Below are positions 2,540-44,715 of a stretch of 64,000 nt of DNA, in pieces. A program made the position numbers and the translations under genes. The notes below the pieces were generated by a model that saw nothing but the letters and a program-made list of their open reading frames with translations, did no database searches and was not told the origin of the DNA. The stretch lies in sequence record OR449013; one strand, 5' to 3'. The stretch comes from Escherichia phage Mangalyan. Each line of letters starts with the position of its first letter. The stretch's first letter is position 1.

Positions 2540-2950
2540 TCATTTAAGTTTAATGCAGTTTTTAAGCTGGCGTTCCATACGATCCACAACCTTGTCTGGA
2601 ACATCATGAATGCTTTTATTACCGTGGCGGTTTTCAACCACGATCACGGTATAACTATACCCATGACTGATTGCCATGTCAACATATTCCTGCACATGTT
2701 TTTCTTTTGTAAACGTATTACTTACCACGATACGGTCGTATCCCATACGCATCATATCTTCTACGTTATCTTTGCACCATTTTGCTGCGAGTGTTACTTT
2801 ACTTGCATCCCAGTTGTAATTGCCGTCATCGTCATACCAGAACATGTCGTTCTCAAAATGTGGATACAGACCCTCTAAAGATAGCGCATTTGCCAGTGTT
2901 GATTTGCCAGACCCTGGTAGACCACGCACGATATATAGCATTTTAGACAT
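2540..2950 (-). CDS. P-loop kinase, polynucleotide 5'-kinase-like
   Basis: Walker A GLPGSGKST near N-terminus; start placed at ATG 2948-2950 (MSKMLYIV) preceded by GGAGGG; immediately upstream of the phosphoesterase gene. Confidence 0.65.
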   Translation of the reverse strand: MSKMLYIVRGLPGSGKSTLANALSLEGLYPHFENDMFWYDDDGNYNWDASKVTLAAKWCKDNVEDMMRMGYDRIVVSNTFTKEKHVQEYVDMAISHGYSYTVIVVENRHGNKSIHDVPDKVVDRMERQLKNCIKLK

Positions 2951-3010
2951 AGTGACCCTCCGTTTTAATTTCAACGGTAGTATACCTGACTGTTTTGTTA
3001 ATTTCAAGTG

Positions 3011-3040
3011 TTGACACTAGGTTATTTGTGTGGCAGGATA
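3011..3040 (+). promoter_or_regulatory. candidate sigma70-like promoter in divergent control region
   Basis: TTGACA at 3011-3016; -10 element poor; sits between divergent kinase and RNA ligase genes. Confidence 0.3.
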
Positions 3041-3050
3041 GACTGACAAA

Positions 3051-3986
3051 ATGACAAATGAGGAACGTATAATGAAGTATTTTAATGCAGACGACCTAGT
3101 TGACAAAGGTCTTGTAACCAGTAGGTATTACCCAGATCTCGGGCTAAAGATCTATAAATATGCCAGAAAAGTATTCTACAACAATCTGTGGCATTTGTCT
3201 CCGCGTTTACTGGAGTGCCGAGGTATTGTTGTTGGCAATGAGGGGAATGTTGTGGCATGGCCTTTCACAAAAGTATTCAACTTAGGAGAAAACTCCACCA
3301 ACCTACCGGACAGTAAACTTGTTACTGCGGTAGAGAAAAAGAACGGATTCCTCGGTGTGGTATCATCTCATAAAGGTGACCTATTGTTCTCAACAACCGG
3401 GTCTCTTGATTCTCCATATTGTAACCTTGCAAAGGAAACCATCCAAGAGCAATGTGGTAATTTAGATCTTATCAAGAAGGTTATGGGCAATGAAAACATG
3501 ACATTCATGTTTGAAATTTGTCACCCTTCAGATCCGCATATTGTTCAAGAAGACCATGGCGCATATTTGATAGGTTGCAGATATAATGATTCTGGAATAA
3601 TGCTACCAGAAGCAGCTTTAGATGGGATTGCCAAATACCTTGGTGCAAAACGTCCTCACACTGTGCGTGAAATTCCGTTCAGCTATGCAAAAGAGTTAGC
3701 TGCAGAAACAAGAGGTGAAGGATATATGATTCGTAAGCCTTACTACCCTTATGATCTGCAGTTGAAGATCAAGTCTCCATACTATCTGGCACGAAAGGCC
3801 GTAATGAGGGGTAAAGCTTGGAAGATTTGGGATGATGATATCTTTAAACGTGTTGACGAAGAGTTTTACGGCATGGTAAACTTCATTCGTAACAACTACA
3901 CAGAGGATGTATGGAACTGCCTCCTGGAGCAGGAACGCCGTGAGATACTTGACTGCTATTTCCACAACGAGGACTATATGCAATGA
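3051..3986 (+). CDS. rnlA: RNA ligase, Rnl1 family (T4 gp63-like)
   Basis: nucleotidyltransferase motif I K-x-N-G (VEKKNGFLG, Lys about residue 96); blocks LECRGIV and KVFNLGEN match the N-terminal region of T4 RNA ligase 1 as I recall it. Confidence 0.8.
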   Translation: MTNEERIMKYFNADDLVDKGLVTSRYYPDLGLKIYKYARKVFYNNLWHLSPRLLECRGIVVGNEGNVVAWPFTKVFNLGENSTNLPDSKLVTAVEKKNGFLGVVSSHKGDLLFSTTGSLDSPYCNLAKETIQEQCGNLDLIKKVMGNENMTFMFEICHPSDPHIVQEDHGAYLIGCRYNDSGIMLPEAALDGIAKYLGAKRPHTVREIPFSYAKELAAETRGEGYMIRKPYYPYDLQLKIKSPYYLARKAVMRGKAWKIWDDDIFKRVDEEFYGMVNFIRNNYTEDVWNCLLEQERREILDCYFHNEDYMQ

Positions 3987-4333
3987 AGAAGTTGATTGTG
4001 TGGCTGGATGACTTGAGAGATCCGTCAAATTACGGGCTCCAAGACGCTGTTTGGCTAAAGAATTCCTCCGAGTTTATAGATTTTATTAACGATAATAGAA
4101 AGCTCTACAGACGCGTTTCTGAGTGGCACATGGACAACGACCTTGGAGAGTTGTTCGAAGGGTACGATTGCCTATCTATGTTGGAGGAAAAATTTGTATT
4201 TGGTAAGCCCCCTGTAGTTGACAACGTGAAGATTTTCGTGCATACTTCTAACCCATCAGCGGCTCGTAAATTCATGCTTGCAGCTGACTCGTTTAAAAAG
4301 TTTGGAATAGAGATTAAACAAAACATCTACTGA
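3983..4333 (+). CDS. hypothetical protein (116 aa)
   Basis: ORF overlapping stop of rnl by 4 nt (translational coupling); no motif recognised. Confidence 0.55.
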   Translation: MKKLIVWLDDLRDPSNYGLQDAVWLKNSSEFIDFINDNRKLYRRVSEWHMDNDLGELFEGYDCLSMLEEKFVFGKPPVVDNVKIFVHTSNPSAARKFMLAADSFKKFGIEIKQNIY

Positions 4334-24881: not shown

Positions 24882-24945
24882 TACTTGACAAAAGCCACAA
24901 GGATGTGGCACCATACAGATGTTTAGGGAAGTTAGGAAACAAGAG

Positions 24946-26079
24946 ATGGCTAAATTATCGACAGAAGAGTTTATAGAGAAGGCGAAAATCATTCACGGTT
25001 ATAAATACAATTACAAGAAAACAGTGTACGTGGATTGCTATGCGAAGGTTTGCATTACCTGTCAAATCCATGGAGATTTTATGCAAGCACCTTGTCAACA
25101 CTTGCAAGGTCGTGGTTGTCCTTTTTGTGCAAAACTTTCTCGTGCTACAAAGTGTAATAAAGGTCTTAAATTTGTAGAAAGAGCCAAAGAAATCCATGGA
25201 GATAACTATGACTACTCTCTCGTATACTACAAGACTTGCAAAGATAAAGTAGAAATAATCTGCAATACTTGTGGAAATCACTTTACACAGACACCTGACA
25301 ATCATATAAATTTGAAAAGAGGTTGTCCAGTTTGCAAGGGGTCAAGAATCTCACAAAGCAAAACCAAACCTCATGAAAAGTGGGTTGAGGACATAGAGAA
25401 GAAAAATACTTATATTGAAATATTAGAAGAGATCACCACTGGGTGGAATAAAGTATTATGTCGTTGCAAAGTTTGCAACCACGAATGGTCAGCTACGCCT
25501 GTTATCCTTAAGCGTGGTCACGGCTGCCCCGGATGTGGCGGATCTATGAAAAAGACCACTGAAGAGTTTATCCAGGACGCTGTGGCTATCCACGGGAACA
25601 AGTATGATTACTCTAAAGTGAGGTATGTGAATTCACACATCAAGGTTACAATTGTTTGCACAGATCATGGAGATTTCTGTCAATCCCCTACCCAGCATTT
25701 AGGAGGGGGAGGGTGTCCTAAATGCACCAAAAGAGGATTTTTATCCCACGATTGTGGTAAACTTTACATTATGGTTGATGATCCGGAAGTGCCTACATTT
25801 ATGAAAATAGGTGTCAGTCATAATGAAAGTAAGCGAAGAGACCAGATACTTAAAAGTGCACAAAGATCTGGAGCTGGTATCTGCGATCTGTACATAGTGA
25901 AAACGTTGGAAGGATCAACTGAAAACATGCTGGCTGTAGAAAAATCTATGCACAAAGCCTTCAGTAAATATAAAATAAACTTCCCTGTAAAATTTGATGG
26001 TAGCACCGAATTCTTCTACTACAGGCCTGAGGTGTTCAGCACAGTGGAAGCAGCGTACAAAGAGATCTGCGGTAAATGA
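24946..26079 (+). CDS. GIY-YIG-like (T5orf172-type) domain protein with four N-terminal zinc-ribbon repeats; putative free-standing homing endonuclease
   Basis: four repeats of H-G-x-x-Y-x-Y ... I-x-C ... HG-x-F ... GCP-x-C; C-terminal LYIMVDDPEVPTFMKIGVS ... RR ... E resembles GIY-(10)-YIG spacing. Confidence 0.6.
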   Translation: MAKLSTEEFIEKAKIIHGYKYNYKKTVYVDCYAKVCITCQIHGDFMQAPCQHLQGRGCPFCAKLSRATKCNKGLKFVERAKEIHGDNYDYSLVYYKTCKDKVEIICNTCGNHFTQTPDNHINLKRGCPVCKGSRISQSKTKPHEKWVEDIEKKNTYIEILEEITTGWNKVLCRCKVCNHEWSATPVILKRGHGCPGCGGSMKKTTEEFIQDAVAIHGNKYDYSKVRYVNSHIKVTIVCTDHGDFCQSPTQHLGGGGCPKCTKRGFLSHDCGKLYIMVDDPEVPTFMKIGVSHNESKRRDQILKSAQRSGAGICDLYIVKTLEGSTENMLAVEKSMHKAFSKYKINFPVKFDGSTEFFYYRPEVFSTVEAAYKEICGK

Positions 26080-26131
26080 TCGTAGAAAGATACACATATC
26101 TTAAACATGCTATAAACTAAGGAGGTACAGT

Positions 26132-27109: not shown

Positions 27110-27139
27110 TTGACAAAGCTTTGTTTAGATAGGTATAAT
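27110..27139 (+). promoter_or_regulatory. sigma70-like promoter
   Basis: TTGACA 27110-27115, 18-bp spacer, TATAAT 27134-27139. Confidence 0.65.
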
Positions 27140-27669: not shown

Positions 27670-28458
27670 ATGGGTCGAGCTAAAGAAACAAAACGCATGC
27701 GTGATGAAGCTAGAGAGGCTCGCAAATCTGATCGCCTGCGCAAGGCTGCTGAGAAATTTGCTGACGAAAGAGAGCACACCGCTCCAGCTCTCCGACCAAT
27801 GAATAAGAAGCAGCAAAAGTATCTTGATTATCTAGGGTCACGTAAGATTATCATTGTAAACGGTGTGTTTGGATCCGGTAAGACATTCATGGCATCTGCA
27901 TATGCAGGTGATCTTCTGCGTAAGAACGAGATTGATAAGATCATTGTTGCACGTCCTTACGTTCAGACAGGAAAGACTTCAGGATTTAAACCTGGAAATG
28001 CAATGCAGAAACTGTGGCCCTATCTTCGAAGCATGATGGACACGATTTGTCGTCGTGTTGGCAAAGGTGCTTTTGCCGCAATGCTGGGAGACGGTCAGAA
28101 CAGTCGTATCGAGATTTGTGAAGTTGAAAGCATTCGTGGTCGTAGTTTCGATGAGCGATGCTTTGTCCTGATTGACGAGGCACAGCAAACTAACCCTGAA
28201 GAAATGTTGTCAATTATCACAAGGATCTCTGATCAGGCCACCCTTGTAATCATGGGCGATAATAGCCAACGTGACATCCCTGGTAAATCTGGACTTGCAT
28301 GGGTGACGGATTTCTTTACTCGTCATCCAGATCCTGAGGTTGGAATGATCAGCTTTGATAGTCCAGACGATGTCGTTCGTTCCGGATTGGGTCGTCAGAT
28401 TGCACTCAATCTTATTGAGGATCGTGCAAATCATATTTGGACCCCTGTTTCCGAGTAA
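27670..28458 (+). CDS. phoH: PhoH-like ATPase
   Basis: Walker A GVFGSGKT, Walker B-like VLIDEAQ, PhoH-type GDNSQRD; 262 aa. Confidence 0.85.
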   Translation: MGRAKETKRMRDEAREARKSDRLRKAAEKFADEREHTAPALRPMNKKQQKYLDYLGSRKIIIVNGVFGSGKTFMASAYAGDLLRKNEIDKIIVARPYVQTGKTSGFKPGNAMQKLWPYLRSMMDTICRRVGKGAFAAMLGDGQNSRIEICEVESIRGRSFDERCFVLIDEAQQTNPEEMLSIITRISDQATLVIMGDNSQRDIPGKSGLAWVTDFFTRHPDPEVGMISFDSPDDVVRSGLGRQIALNLIEDRANHIWTPVSE

Positions 28459-28502: not shown

Positions 28503-28531
28503 TTGACAAACAGGTAAGCTTTAGATATTAT
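28503..28531 (+). promoter_or_regulatory. sigma70-like promoter
   Basis: TTGACA 28503-28508, 17-bp spacer, TATTAT 28526-28531; preceded by hairpin GGGTGG-TTATTCC-ACCC at 28467-28483. Confidence 0.65.
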
Positions 28532-28928: not shown

Positions 28929-29978
28929 ATGAATTTAACACCTCGCAGCACCATGGTACACGGCATGAAAGAAAAACAGAACGGTTTCGAACCTATGAGT
29001 AATAAAATGTTTGGTATGCCGGGGGGTATTATGGAAACATATAGCTACCCAACACCTGTTGTTGACCACGTTCTTTATATCGACGATTTGGAAGACTTAC
29101 AAGATCATATGTCTCGTCTGCAGACGATCCGTATGGCTCAGCCGGAAGAAAGCATTCGGGTGATCATCAATAGCCCAGGGGGCTGCGTGCACATTGCAAT
29201 GGCTTATTTGCAGGCATTCCGCGAGTCTCAGGCAAGCGTTGTTGCACACGCTGAAGGGATGTGCTGCTCGGCAGGAACAATCTTATGGCTGGGCTGCAAA
29301 GAACGAACTGTGGCTCCGGACACAGAATTTATGTTCCACTACTATCAAGGTGGCACCTATGGTAACGGTGTGAACATGAATACCCAGATCAACTACTGGA
29401 AGAAACGTTTTGAACGCCTGATCGAAAAATACTACGGTGGGGTGTTAACAGAAGATGAGATCGCATCCATCACAGCTGGCGGTGAAGTGTGGTTAGATGG
29501 AGAAGAACTGGCATCTAGAACTGGTGCTATCATTCTGGACGATGAAAACATTCAGCGCATTCAGAATGGACAGAAACCGAAAAAGCTTTTGGCAAAAAGT
29601 GATGAAGAAGGTGTGCTAGGCGAAGCAGGCCTGCCAGAGATTCACCAATGCACATCTCTGGACGAGCTGGTTCATGCTGTTGAGTCTGCAAAAGCAAATG
29701 GTATGAAAGATGATGTTCACACTGTGTTCCTGAATCTGCAGATGGAAAGTGGCGAGACCGTCCGGATCGCCCTGGGTGAAATTACTTCAGAAGATCTGCA
29801 GCGATTCTCTGTCGTCGAACTTCAGGATATTCTGTCTCAATTGAAGACTACTCTGAACGGCGGTGAAGAGGTTAAGGTGAAAGACAAGACCCGCAAGCGT
29901 CTGATGGACAATATCATTAAAACAGCAAAAGAGCTCAATGAAAAAATCCTGGGTGCAGGAATTGTCGAAGAAGCTTAA
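28929..29978 (+). CDS. ClpP-like serine peptidase (S14 fold) with C-terminal extension
   Basis: IRVIINSPGG, GMCCSAGT (Ser in G-x-S-x-G-like context), FMFHYYQ (His) in ClpP order; 349 aa. Confidence 0.65.
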   Translation: MNLTPRSTMVHGMKEKQNGFEPMSNKMFGMPGGIMETYSYPTPVVDHVLYIDDLEDLQDHMSRLQTIRMAQPEESIRVIINSPGGCVHIAMAYLQAFRESQASVVAHAEGMCCSAGTILWLGCKERTVAPDTEFMFHYYQGGTYGNGVNMNTQINYWKKRFERLIEKYYGGVLTEDEIASITAGGEVWLDGEELASRTGAIILDDENIQRIQNGQKPKKLLAKSDEEGVLGEAGLPEIHQCTSLDELVHAVESAKANGMKDDVHTVFLNLQMESGETVRIALGEITSEDLQRFSVVELQDILSQLKTTLNGGEEVKVKDKTRKRLMDNIIKTAKELNEKILGAGIVEEA

Positions 29979-30029: not shown

Positions 30030-30563
30030 ATGACTTGTGCTAGAAAACCTGATGAACAACGTAACGCCTACGATGAGTATGTGACACCGGAGTGGTGTGC
30101 AGAAGGGCTGTATGACCTTATTCCGTTCCCAGAAGACTGGACCTACTTAGAGCCTTGCAGGAATAGTGCCTCAGGTGTGTTCTACTCCCGTATGCCGTTA
30201 GGATCTGCATGGGGAGAAATACAAGAAGGTGTTGACTATCTGAATACAGAATACAACCATGTTGACTGTATTATCACCAACCCACCATACAGCCTGGCTC
30301 GTGAGTTTGTAGACAAGGCGTTGAAAGATGCTGACGTAGTTATTATGCTTTTGCGTCTTAATTTTCTGGAAAGCAAAGCCAGATTTGAATGGTGGCTTGA
30401 TAATGCACCTACTACTGTGATCACAATATCTAAGCGTCCATCATTTCAATCAAACGGCAGAACTGACGGGCAAGCATATGCATATTTTGTGTGGGATAAG
30501 AAAAACCGTTTAGACTTGCCGCCGTTTATGTGGTTGGCACCCCCAGAGGTAGACCTGAAATGA
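30030..30563 (+). CDS. short gamma-class methyltransferase catalytic domain (NPPY motif)
   Basis: YVTPEW, LEPCRNSASG (motif I-like), IITNPPYS (motif IV); only 177 aa, no obvious target-recognition domain. Confidence 0.6.
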   Translation: MTCARKPDEQRNAYDEYVTPEWCAEGLYDLIPFPEDWTYLEPCRNSASGVFYSRMPLGSAWGEIQEGVDYLNTEYNHVDCIITNPPYSLAREFVDKALKDADVVIMLLRLNFLESKARFEWWLDNAPTTVITISKRPSFQSNGRTDGQAYAYFVWDKKNRLDLPPFMWLAPPEVDLK

Positions 30564-32804: not shown

Positions 32805-32990
32805 ATGGTAAAAAATAAATCTTTAGAGCAGGCTGAAAACCTTCTCCACGAGCTGGTAAAGGAGTGGAAAGTTGAATACTCAGATTTTAATGCAAGAGAG
32901 GGGGAAGATTATTGGCCTACGGAGCGCTCAGAGGGAGAGTGGTATCAAGATTTCATAGAATGGTTATATCAGACGTGTGATGAGGGGTGA
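32805..32990 (+). CDS. hypothetical protein (61 aa)
   Basis: ATG 32805 after AAAGGAGAC. Confidence 0.45.
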   Translation: MVKNKSLEQAENLLHELVKEWKVEYSDFNAREGEDYWPTERSEGEWYQDFIEWLYQTCDEG

Positions 32991-32992
32991 CG

Positions 32993-33448
32993 ATGTTTGT
33001 TAAATATGTAAAAACGTGCCTCAACAACCTTGGTAGAGAGCATTGGTACACCTTGCTTGAAAAAGGAGAAATTTTAACAAAATCTGGAAAGATAACTTTG
33101 ATACCCTTGGATGATAAAGACCCGTCACTACTTGTCATAGATGATTACGTTACAGGTGTGTCGTACGAGGTCTCTGTGGAGAGGTTAATACGCAGATCTG
33201 GAGGGCCTTATGACCGAAGAGAGTATGTTTTCGATTCTGTTACAGAGAAGGAGGATCCGTCTCTAATGTTTAGGATGGTAATCAGGGATATGAAATCATC
33301 TATAAATAGGATCGTAAAGGACATTAAAGAGCCTTTTAGGGTAAAAGTTAAGAAGTTTTTTGATTCTAAGATTAACATACTCGCCGTTGTACTAGGCGTA
33401 ATTCAACTTCTGTTAATTTTGCACTATCTTGAACTGTTGTTCAAGTAG
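32993..33448 (+). CDS. hypothetical protein with C-terminal membrane anchor
   Basis: ATG after GAGGGG; C-terminal ILAVVLGVIQLLLILHYL. Confidence 0.45.
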   Translation: MFVKYVKTCLNNLGREHWYTLLEKGEILTKSGKITLIPLDDKDPSLLVIDDYVTGVSYEVSVERLIRRSGGPYDRREYVFDSVTEKEDPSLMFRMVIRDMKSSINRIVKDIKEPFRVKVKKFFDSKINILAVVLGVIQLLLILHYLELLFK

Positions 33449-42087: not shown

Positions 42088-42303
42088 ATGAAGATAGAGA
42101 TATTTGGTGGAGCTGACAACACTCGTGGCCTGATTTACCTTGAATTCGATGAATCATACCTGCCAGAGGTGTTAAATATGGACTCTGTTGCTGAGGCTTT
42201 GGGAGTAAGTCCTAAAGATCTCCACTCTGGTGCTGAGATTGATGGTTGGGAGGAGACCATGAACATCGATTTCAGTGAAGTAGGGGATGAACCACTGGAC
42301 TGA
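42088..42303 (+). CDS. small acidic protein (71 aa), MKIEI-type
   Basis: ATG after CAGAGGAG; last rightward gene. Confidence 0.55.
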   Translation: MKIEIFGGADNTRGLIYLEFDESYLPEVLNMDSVAEALGVSPKDLHSGAEIDGWEETMNIDFSEVGDEPLD

Positions 42304-42430
42304 CACACAATTAGTTGCCCGGCTAAAGTGCTGGGAGCACCCATAACACATCTTTCAACTAAATTTTCTACCACCACAATCACTTACCTCCCACACATGA
42401 CTGTTTGCTTGTTTAGTGAGCAGTCATGCC

Positions 42431-42458
42431 TTGACATTCTTGCCTATCCTGATAAAAT
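42431..42458 (+). promoter_or_regulatory. candidate sigma70-like promoter at entry to ORF-free zone
   Basis: TTGACA 42431-42436, 16-bp spacer, TAAAAT 42453-42458; no ORF downstream. Confidence 0.4.
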
Positions 42459-42654
42459 TAAGTTCTTCTCTTTTCTTTTACCGAGTAATTCGGGTTTTCT
42501 GTTCTCTTCGGTTTGAAGGGGTATGGAGATACACCTGAGTGAACAGGGTGAACAACCGAACCATTGGCTATGGCATTAGCATGGCGAAGCGGACGGGTGA
42601 CGAAAGAGGGGCCGGAGGACACCAGTCACTGCCATATGATATATGGGTGATAAC

Positions 42655-43193
42655 CTGAAGAGTCTGAATAAGTGTTTAAGTACCAGTCAGAGGAAAAGGT
42701 GAATGGTAGCCGAAGGGGGAGGGGGGTTACCTGCTTCTGTAAACATGCATCTGAAATACTACTTTAGATAACCTGAACCTGCCTTTCTGACAAATATTCC
42801 CTATTAAACTTGAATTATTTATAGAAAATACCACAACACCACTTAAGTCTTTGATTTTACACACAAATCTTACAGATATTAAACCTCTCTATTTAACATA
42901 CCTGTAACATATACTATACTCCACCTGTCTGATCAATTTCCCCAACTACATCCCCATATTTTCCCTGTCTGTACTACCCCTGCCCCGCCGGGAGTCCCGT
43001 CATATCTGGCTTTCCAGCAAATATCACACCCACAAATATCATCACCTGAAGAGGGTTTCATCCCATAATACATGCCTTACCTGAAGAGCGCTTCATACAC
43101 CACATAAATTTTTTAATTGACCCCCTCCCCGCCGCCGGAGAGGTTGGCTTTTCCCACACAGACCTGGAGAGTCAGCCAGAAATATCTGAAGAG
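42655..43193. repeat. four dispersed copies of about 15-bp motif CCTGAAGAG(G/C)G(T/C)TTCA
   Basis: CTGAAGAG at about 42655, 43046, 43081, 43186. Confidence 0.7.
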
Positions 43194-43750
43194 GGTCTAG
43201 TTCTGCCCTGTCATAAGCGGTAGCGACTGGAGTGCTGCTAGGCGGACGAAATGGGAATACTTCTCATTCTTATAACAATTCTCAAATATCGAGGCAGTGA
43301 GGCAAATTAATAGGTGAGGCCGTTCACACAGTGGCACAACATTTGCAACCTATCTTGTGGGATTGAATGAGAATACCTATCATTGTGAGAACTGTTATCA
43401 TTACGGGCAATTTAACATAATACCCATTATGCGCACCACTGGCGATACATACAGGGATTGATAACATGGGTTACTGTTTACGCACATAACAATTATATTT
43501 CTTACTATTTGTGTGGGATATAGTTAGCAGCCGATAGATTAGATATTAACCTGCAGACTTCTGACCGTCCAGACGTCTAAACGCCCACACACCAAGGATT
43601 ATACATACACTCCTGAATGTAAACAGGGCCGCAAAAATGCTACCATACAAGCTTGTAAATTTTTCATGCAGCACTTGACAAAGAGGAGAAAAACTTGTCT
43701 GACATAATGTGACCTAACTGACACAACATGACACTTTTACACACCTATTA

Positions 43751-43820
43751 GTTTACACACTGGATTGTTTACATTCCTGATTGTTCACATGCTAACCATT
43801 TACATGATTGACTGTTTACA
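43751..43820. repeat. iteron-like array: five copies of GTTTACA (variants GTTCACA, ATTTACA) at 15-16 bp spacing
   Basis: copies starting about 43751, 43767, 43783, 43798, 43814. Confidence 0.75.
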
Positions 43821-43833
43821 CACCGATAATCAG

Positions 43834-44083
43834 CCATGCCATTCGTTTGCATGACAATAATTATACATGACAATAATCGCACTGATCATAATTAGCATGA
43901 CATAATATAAAAGCAGGGCAACTATTAGCAGATCTATAGTTGCCTTGCTTGTTATGTCATGATTAACTAAATACAAGGCAACTATGATCTGATTAATAGT
44001 TTGCAGACAAACTATCACGGGGGTGATGGTTACTGCTTTTATATTATGTCGCGACTCCGTCGCGCCATGCCATTCGTTTGCAT
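43834..44083. repeat. direct 19-bp repeat CCATGCCATTCGTTTGCAT (two copies) flanking inverted repeats GGCAACTAT / ATAGTTGCC
   Basis: 19-mer at 43834-43852 and 44065-44083; palindrome arms at 43917-43925 / 43936-43944; second related palindrome about 43977-44005. Confidence 0.7.
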
Positions 44084-44697
44084 AGTTGCCTTATTGTTAC
44101 AGATAAAATAATTGTATTGTTAATTATTTCTTATCTTTCTATTAGTCATCTAATGATTTCAGTTAATATAGTAACGTACAGTAAACATTAGACGACTAAA
44201 GATTTCTATGCTTATGGTAACCTAACGTGACAATTCCAGACTGTTTACGAAAAATGTTGACACCTGGGCCGATTTATGTTATGCAGTTTACACGAATAAT
44301 TATTTTATGCAGGTATTGACTATTCCGTTATTCTATGGTTGGAATAAATGCTTAGCAGGCTATAGAATGGCGAGCGTACGTAAATTCTGAGATCTGGCGG
44401 CTATAGTTATACTCGATTTTTCACGTAGAAAACGCTTTTGTAGTTATGTAAGTGTATGACTTATAAAGTTGACAAGCTATTGAATATATGCATCAGGTTA
44501 AATTTTGTGCAAATGCTGCATTACGTGCAATTTTGGAAGGAAAAACGTGTAAAAATGGCCCTGCTACCACACAATGAAAAATTATGCAATAGTTATTTTA
44601 TATGTATGTTTGTACAGTGTGTGGGATTGATGGCTCGTCAATTATTCCACTTGCCAGGTAGGGCCGTTTATGGTAGGGGGAAGAGCAGACAAAAAGA

Positions 44698-44715
44698 AAG
44701 GGGCCTAAGCCCCTT
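44698..44715 (-). terminator. rho-independent terminator for leftward transcripts
   Basis: AAGGGGC CTAA GCCCCTT; on minus strand followed by UCUUUUUGUC. Confidence 0.65.

Follow-up and report, generated by a model that had tools for sequence, protein, structure and literature searches.

What is a peptidase with the motifs of ClpP doing among the nucleotide-metabolism genes of an rV5-like myophage? A gene for such a protein lies in the window, a stretch of 64,000 nucleotides from Escherichia phage Mangalyan (sequence record OR449013), whose DNA is that of a Vequintavirus (rV5-like myophage). An initial annotation, made from the letters of the sequence, had called the product ClpP-like and had suggested that it might be a stand-alone protease acting on host proteins rather than a prohead protease. 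The explanation we prefer, to which we assign a probability of about 0.6, is that the gene encodes an accessory, phage-lineage serine peptidase of the ClpP fold, with a predicted Ser114-His137-Glu186 triad, and that this peptidase is not the capsid-maturation enzyme.

The gene is in itself an ordinary object and already known: it is annotated, catalogued in PHROG and present in over a hundred coliphage genomes. The 3-kb region around it had matches in 122 phage records, with identities of 90-99%, and nearly all of these came from Escherichia rV5-like myophages (Vequintavirus), including MiataMamis (98.4%), LL12 (98.2%) and rV5 (96.0%). The protease gene alone matched 118 phage records at 90-98% nucleotide identity, and at the protein level the identity to annotated products in rV5-like phages was 96-99.7%. 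Its orthologs include ORF122 of rV5, bas56_0173 and bas54_0171. ORF122 has carried the label "ClpP ATP-dependent protease subunit" in the rV5 record (DQ832317) since 2006, while the BASEL annotations use "ClpP-like protease". We regard the gene as annotated and catalogued because of these labels and because phrog_5410 matched the protein over its full length, C-terminal domain included (E=7e-155; residues 24-345 against positions 4-322 of the 323 in the profile). In the literature on phage-encoded ClpP, on ICP1 gp211 and on Vequintavirus transcriptomics, no functional study was found, and the text of the rV5 paper does not discuss ORF122.

The gene lies between a PhoH gene and a methyltransferase gene, as the initial annotation had said, with one small ORF intervening on the PhoH side (Table 1). 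A homolog of this 103-aa ORF was found in the matching block of Seunavirus GAP31 (31% identity, E=7e-9). The predicted promoter that precedes the small ORF and the protease gene corresponds to the annotated rV5 promoter "P121", and the two genes are probably co-transcribed.

Table 1. Coordinates in the window of the protease gene, its predicted parts and its neighbors.
Feature	Position	Strand	Description
PhoH-like P-loop ATPase gene	27670..28458	+	Pfam PhoH 3.6e-47; recurrent upstream neighbor of ClpP-related genes in several large phages
Sigma-70-like promoter	28503..28531	+	TTGACA, 17-nt spacer, TATTAT; 11/12 matches; consensus match only
Small conserved ORF, 103 aa	28557..28868	+	phrog_5456; rV5 ORF121; between PhoH and protease genes
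ClpP-like protease ORF	28929..29978	+	349 aa plus stop; ATG start; AAGGA 9 nt upstream
N-terminal region, residues 1-44	28929..29060	+	predicted disordered; located where ClpP has its axial loop, not alignable to it
ClpP-fold peptidase domain, residues 45-205	29061..29543	+	PF00574, AF2 model, Foldseek
Ser114 codon	29268..29270	+	predicted nucleophile; aligned with E. coli ClpP Ser97
His137 codon	29337..29339	+	predicted general base; aligned with E. coli ClpP His122
Glu186 codon	29484..29486	+	predicted third triad member; at ClpP Asp171 position
C-terminal extension, residues 206-349	29544..29975	+	variable acidic linker, then compact domain
Methyltransferase-like gene	30030-30563		phrog_799 8e-67

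Membership in the ClpP fold was well supported. A search for the S14 family, proposed in the initial annotation, placed the protein above the gathering score of Pfam CLP_protease (PF00574; residues 59-168, E=1.4e-12, 48.3 bits against 20.2), in addition to the full-length PHROG match. An AlphaFold model built from the family alignment had a pLDDT of about 90 over residues 45-215. The 50 Foldseek matches listed from the PDB were all ClpP (probability 1.0, target TM 0.63-0.71, about 20% identity). In the predicted model, the ClpP fold runs out at about residue 200-215, and a long helix (residues 147-169) lies where ClpP has its handle. The ClpP-like motifs occur in the order described earlier, INSPGG at residues 80-85, G110-M-C-C-S114-A-G116 and HYYQ at residues 137-140. 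All of them are present, but the nucleophile region is G-x-C-C-S-A-G, one residue longer than the G-x-C-S-A-G first reported.

For the catalytic triad, two positions were in register and the third varied. Ser114 and His137 were invariant in 24 full-length homologs, and the corresponding Ser and His were universal across about 85 ClpP-related phage ORFs aligned with hmmalign. In the latter set, position 186 was mostly Asp or Glu; among the 24 full-length homologs, those of Vequintavirus had Glu there, and most of the remainder, including the Seunavirus-like ones, had Gln. The assignment of Glu186 to the Asp171 position comes from HMMER alignments to solved ClpP structures, because a mafft pairwise alignment with E. 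coli ClpP misaligns everything past His137. The Arg-Asp pair at this position in ClpP, a ring-ring sensor, is Gly-Glu or Gly-Gln in this family. Alignment of the triad residues, on which the first description depended, thus held for Ser and His, while the third member is Glu here and Gln in some relatives. Because Gln occupies this position in many full-length relatives, catalytic competence may differ across the family. The presence of Glu or Gln in place of the conserved Asp would also agree with a ClpP-fold protein that has lost catalysis and serves some structural or regulatory purpose, such as that of a decoy for host proteolysis or an inhibitor of it. We judge such a role highly improbable: Ser and His are invariant both in the family and in its sister family, as are the surrounding GxxCSAGT and MFHxYQGG motifs, and dN/dS is lowest in the peptidase domain.

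Cellular ClpP (MEROPS S14; E. coli, PDB 1TYF/6WR2) and the phage protein share the fold, the INSPGG oxyanion region, Ser, His and a helix at the handle position. They differ in the surface at which Clp ATPases dock. In E. coli ClpP, the ADEP/IGF-loop pocket includes Val44, Leu48, Phe49, Glu51, Ala52, Phe82, Arg22 and Leu23, and further pocket residues are Val28, Phe30, Tyr60, Tyr62, Ile90, Met92, Leu114 and Leu189 (10.1101/2023.03.01.530711). In the phage protein, Tyr60 corresponds to Arg77, Tyr62 to Ile79, Phe82 to Glu99, Ile90 to His107, Met92 to Glu109, Phe112 to Thr127 and Leu114 to Ala129 (A or S in the family), and Leu48, Phe49, Glu51 and Ala52 fall within a deletion of five residues, located in the helix from which L48 and F49 come. 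This mapping is secure, since there are no indels between INSPGG and the nucleophile and the Pro-to-His spacing is identical; a second, independent hmmalign alignment gave the same correspondence. The residues that replace the pocket were invariant in 24 of 24 homologs, and the aromatic pocket set was missing from every phage lineage examined by hmmalign. Judged by sequence, the hydrophobic apical pocket that receives the IGF/LGF loops of ClpX, ClpA or ClpC is absent from the phage protein. Further differences from cellular ClpP are the change of Asp171 to Glu or Gln, the change of the preceding Arg to Gly, an axial-loop sequence that could not be aligned, and an added C-terminal domain of 145 aa.

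Profile scores gave a similar picture. The cellular ClpP model TIGR00493 (clpP) scored 33.9 bits against a cutoff of 308.6, and the NCBIfam NF models of ClpP scored 22-40 bits against cutoffs of 228-361. The best NCBIfam match was NF045542, "head maturation protease, ClpP-related", with 61.2 bits, also below its cutoff (120). Beyond the protein's own clade, the PHROG matches were to head-maturation proteases, for example phrog_1684 at 5e-23. On these scores, we place the protein closer in evolution to the maturation proteases of phages than to ClpP of the cellular type.

These results bear on the possibility that the gene encodes a bona fide ClpP subunit, whose tetradecamers would dock host ClpX or ClpA, or which would mix with host ClpP, and so redirect host ATP-dependent proteolysis. 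The fold, the aligned Ser and His, the handle-length helix and the Pfam score above gathering are all what such a subunit would have. However, invariant Arg, Glu, His, Glu and Thr stand where ClpP has five of its hydrophobic pocket residues, and four more pocket positions are in the deletion; TIGR00493 and all the NCBIfam ClpP models are far under their cutoffs and are outscored by the models of phage head-maturation proteases; and the Arg-Asp pair is Gly-Glu or Gly-Gln. We therefore consider a bona fide ClpP subunit very unlikely. Canonical docking to host ClpX or ClpA is likewise unlikely, judged from the sequence alignment, and a non-canonical contact with a host unfoldase may occur. As the ATPase docking site is absent, the standard label "ATP-dependent Clp protease proteolytic subunit" is probably misleading. 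The earlier term "ClpP-like" is apt for the fold and for Ser and His only, as there is no conservation of the residues that mark a ClpP as dependent on Clp ATPases.

The affinity to maturation proteases raises the question of whether the gene serves the head. The phage ClpP-related head-maturation proteases (NF045542; phrog_1684, phrog_94 and phrog_133, including protease-capsid fusions) share with the protein a phage origin and a ClpP-fold Ser/His core. In contrast to them, the protein scores below the NF045542 cutoff and is encoded outside the head module, among nucleotide-metabolism genes, and its ortholog is not essential. Queries for terminase, portal, protease, scaffold, decoration, capsid and sheath found no head genes across the 64-kb window by tblastn. 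In the near-identical genome of AlexBoehm, the head module occupies 2.3-6.8 kb and consists of portal, a 139-aa protease, scaffold, decoration and major capsid protein. The distance from the head-module protease to the ClpP-like gene, counted round the genome ends, is about 31 kb, so that the placement of the gene outside a capsid-assembly cluster, proposed from the window, stands. The head-module protease belongs to Pfam Peptidase_S78_2 (XkdF type; 8.7e-18, 65 bits against a cutoff of 24). This second serine protease of the same genome (bas56_0005 / bas54_0006) is of an unrelated fold family, is encoded between portal and scaffold, and is a candidate for the capsid-maturation enzyme.

Published data on dispensability agree with this division. 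In a HIDEN-SEQ transposon study of phage Bas54 (10.1101/2025.11.20.689424, Extended Data Table 8), the ClpP-like protease gene bas54_0171 was hit at 28 of 44 TA sites (64% saturation) and was classed as Intermediate, whereas the S78 prohead protease bas54_0006 was hit at 1 of 24 and was classed as Essential. Its head-module neighbors were also Essential: portal (bas54_0005, 0/84), scaffold (bas54_0007, 0/51) and major capsid protein (bas54_0009, 0/47). The 103-aa ORF (25/27) and PhoH (30/32) were non-essential. In a competition of Bas54 on K-12 and on a clinical strain, the ClpP-like gene showed no difference (log2FC 0.23, p=0.80) (10.1101/2025.11.20.689424). Bas54 is phage MaxBurger, and its ortholog, at published coordinates 105763-106812, is 93.0% identical in nucleotides to the gene in the window; these data concern the Bas54 ortholog and not Mangalyan itself. 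The Intermediate call may reflect a fitness contribution or a requirement for one domain. With an essential S78/XkdF protease of its own in the head module and an ortholog that tolerates insertions, the conclusion that the gene product is not the prohead protease, which the initial annotation had anticipated, is well supported.

A narrower role in morphogenesis has to be weighed separately, namely that of a second morphogenetic protease, which would act not on the major capsid protein but on some other virion component (gp133 or an internal, tail or ejection protein), guided to an assembly intermediate by its C-terminal domain. Outside the clade, the nearest relatives, both in curated families and in PHROG, are head-maturation proteases (NF045542, 61 bits; phrog_1684, 5e-23), and the early/middle block that holds the gene also encodes, 3 kb downstream, the virion protein rV5 gp133. 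Head-maturation proteases commonly carry a targeting or scaffold extension at the C-terminus, as in lambda gpC/Nu3. Against this role, an essential protease is already present in the head module, the ClpP-like gene tolerates disruption, and the homologs in ICP1 and KVP40-like phages lie among replication genes. The ORF122 product was not reported among rV5 virion proteins, although this carries little weight, since proteases frequently exit the head. The C-terminal domain proved unrelated to the phage's own scaffold protein, with an hhalign probability of 0.2. A nested scaffold-like product in the style of lambda C/Nu3 was rejected as well, there being no in-frame start with a Shine-Dalgarno sequence at the domain boundary. 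We regard a second morphogenetic protease as unlikely.

The preferred accessory peptidase has two further regions. In the N-terminal one, the pLDDT was below 50 over residues 1-41, and conserved motifs, FG-MPG and Y-S/T-Y-P, were found, with F28, G29, Y40 and P41 conserved. At the other end, the extension of roughly 150 aa noted in the initial annotation was confirmed as about 135-150 aa past the end of the ClpP fold. Structure prediction, which had been suggested for it, gave with moderate confidence an acidic linker followed by a compact domain (about residues 264-343) of a beta-hairpin and three helices. When a profile of the C-terminal region was searched against 1.84 billion representatives, it retrieved nothing beyond members of the family, fragments and a single spurious repeat protein. 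In BFVD, Foldseek found one match at E<=0.001, to a protein of 303 aa that presumably belongs to the family. The C-terminal domain is thus an orphan restricted to this family. Strong purifying selection acts on each of the three parts of the protein: in comparison with three orthologs, the whole gene had a dN/dS of 0.04-0.065, the peptidase domain 0.02-0.05, the C-terminal domain 0.045-0.08 and the N-terminus 0-0.11.

The sister family is phrog_1827, "ATP-dependent protease" (E=2e-40), which includes ICP1 gp211 and proteins of KVP40-like, Pakpunavirus, Otagovirus and Sugarlandvirus phages. ICP1 gp211 is 35% identical over the peptidase domain. The two families resemble each other in a non-head site among replication and nucleotide genes, in the presence of another prohead protease in the phage (ICP1 has a separate predicted protease, gp125, in its capsid cluster), and in the lack of the aromatic pocket residues. 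They differ in that most phrog_1827 members are 180-240 aa long without the C-terminal domain and have Asp or Glu, mostly Asp, as the third triad residue. ICP1 gp211 does carry an extension, but one unrelated to that of the Mangalyan protein. The set R77-E99-H107-E109-T127 is specific to the long family. ClpP-related genes among replication and nucleotide genes were found in KVP40-like, Pakpunavirus, Otagovirus and Sugarlandvirus phages and in environmental contigs.

The neighboring PhoH gene suggests another type of interaction, in which the protease and the PhoH-like ATPase would form an ATP-dependent protease pair or carry out two steps of one pathway. With a single exception, the Vequintavirinae-like loci examined had PhoH on the same strand as the protease gene and 0.5-2 kb upstream of it, and the same arrangement was seen in ICP1 (gp208 and gp211) and in two large contigs of environmental origin. 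In Otagovirus phiPsa347, the PhoH and ClpP-related genes overlap by 8 bp. An unrelated freshwater siphovirus has XkdF, clpP and phoH together (PMC5964084). This recurrence, and the dispensability of both genes in Bas54, are compatible with such a partnership. However, PhoH was not found within 3.3-8 kb of the gene in Pakpunavirus, KVP40-like and Sugarlandvirus phages, nor in the flanks (up to 8 kb, less on short contigs) of about 55 environmental short-form loci. Linkage to PhoH as a strict rule is thus ruled out, since PhoH is missing from the flanks of most short-form loci. PhoH is not an AAA+ unfoldase and is common in phages that lack this protease, which also argues against a pair. The shared gene order also takes in the genes for nrd, dCMP deaminase and ligase, with variable genes in between, so that inherited synteny of the replication module is a simpler explanation of the adjacency. 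A dedicated partnership with PhoH is highly improbable in our view.

The accessory peptidase of the preferred reading would be made alongside the nucleotide-metabolism (middle) genes, from host-type promoters. Retention of the handle helix suggests that it would assemble into ClpP-like rings. It would act independently of host ClpX and ClpA, as a gated peptidase or together with some other partner, and the lineage-specific C-terminal domain may select substrates or partners. The fitness advantage would be expected under conditions other than growth on E. coli K-12 in rich medium. A far more speculative extension, to which we give very little credence, is that the protease and PhoH, possibly with the 103-aa ORF, would constitute a ClpX-independent module for proteolytic or RNA-protein turnover, with the polar patch (R77, E99, H107, E109 and T127) or the orphan C-terminal domain as the docking surface, and with conditional importance, for example under host defence or nutrient limitation.

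Beyond the label that the gene already carried, the present analysis adds the missing docking-pocket residues for Clp ATPases, the affinity to phage maturation proteases, an orphan but constrained C-terminal domain, and the link to published dispensability data. Many large lytic phages have a second ClpP-fold peptidase among their replication genes, besides a dedicated prohead protease. If host proteins or defence factors are its targets, this peptidase would be a new kind of tool for host takeover or counter-defence.

In the alignment with E. coli ClpP, the hydrophobic pocket on which the ClpX and ClpA loops dock is replaced by polar residues in the ClpP-like protease (28929-29978). Residues 77, 99, 107, 109 and 127, which stand at the pocket positions, are Arg, Glu, His, Glu and Thr, respectively, and are invariant. 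This set was found only in the long (phrog_5410) family. Judged from sequence, it could serve as a novel contact surface or bind a metal.

Among the loci seen, PhoH and ClpP-related genes were most closely linked in Otagovirus phiPsa347, where their overlap suggests translational coupling. In the metabolic block of the window, two sigma-70 promoter matches precede successive small operons, consistent with early or middle transcription of the block by host RNA polymerase. The ortholog of rV5 ORF133 follows the protease gene at a distance of about 3 kb, within this early/metabolic block, although the ORF133 product is among the predominant virion proteins of rV5 (rV5 proteomics paper).

Features located in the window and in phiPsa347
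Feature	Location	Strand	Details
Homing-endonuclease-like ORF, 386 aa	window 24919-26079	+	T5orf172 and DUF4379 zinc-finger repeats; phrog_681, 4e-73
Sigma-70 consensus promoter	window 27110-27139	+	perfect match, 12/12
Sigma-70 consensus promoter	window 28503-28531	+	near-perfect match, 11/12
rV5 ORF133 ortholog, 153 aa	window 32987-33448	+	hydrophobic C-terminal helix
ORF-poor, tRNA-free stretch, ~2.4 kb	window ~42300-44700		at switch of transcription direction and GC skew
Overlapping PhoH and ClpP-related genes	phiPsa347 (L009) 2648-4013		8-bp overlap

The homing-endonuclease-like ORF is flanked on both sides by anaerobic ribonucleotide reductase genes. Genome comparison detected no counterpart of the stretch that holds it (~24910-26120) in the near-identical rV5-like phage AlexBoehm. 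The window and related genomes are otherwise 95-98% identical, yet they differ here; on this comparison, the stretch is a mobile insertion that varies between close relatives.

About 18 unannotated GenBank records within MG065635-MG065674 ("Campylobacter phage C12, C14, C15, A12a..."), labeled as Campylobacter jejuni phages, were 92-97% identical to the E. coli rV5-like region of the window. From this identity the host label looks doubtful, and coliphages carried along in the preparations are possibly its cause.

The region of phage MaxBurger (Bas54) equivalent to the ORF-poor stretch, an intergenic region of about 2 kb, accepted zero transposon insertions in a Tn-seq study (10.1101/2025.11.20.689424). 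This result suggests that non-coding DNA with an essential role, for example an origin or a regulatory region, lies here.
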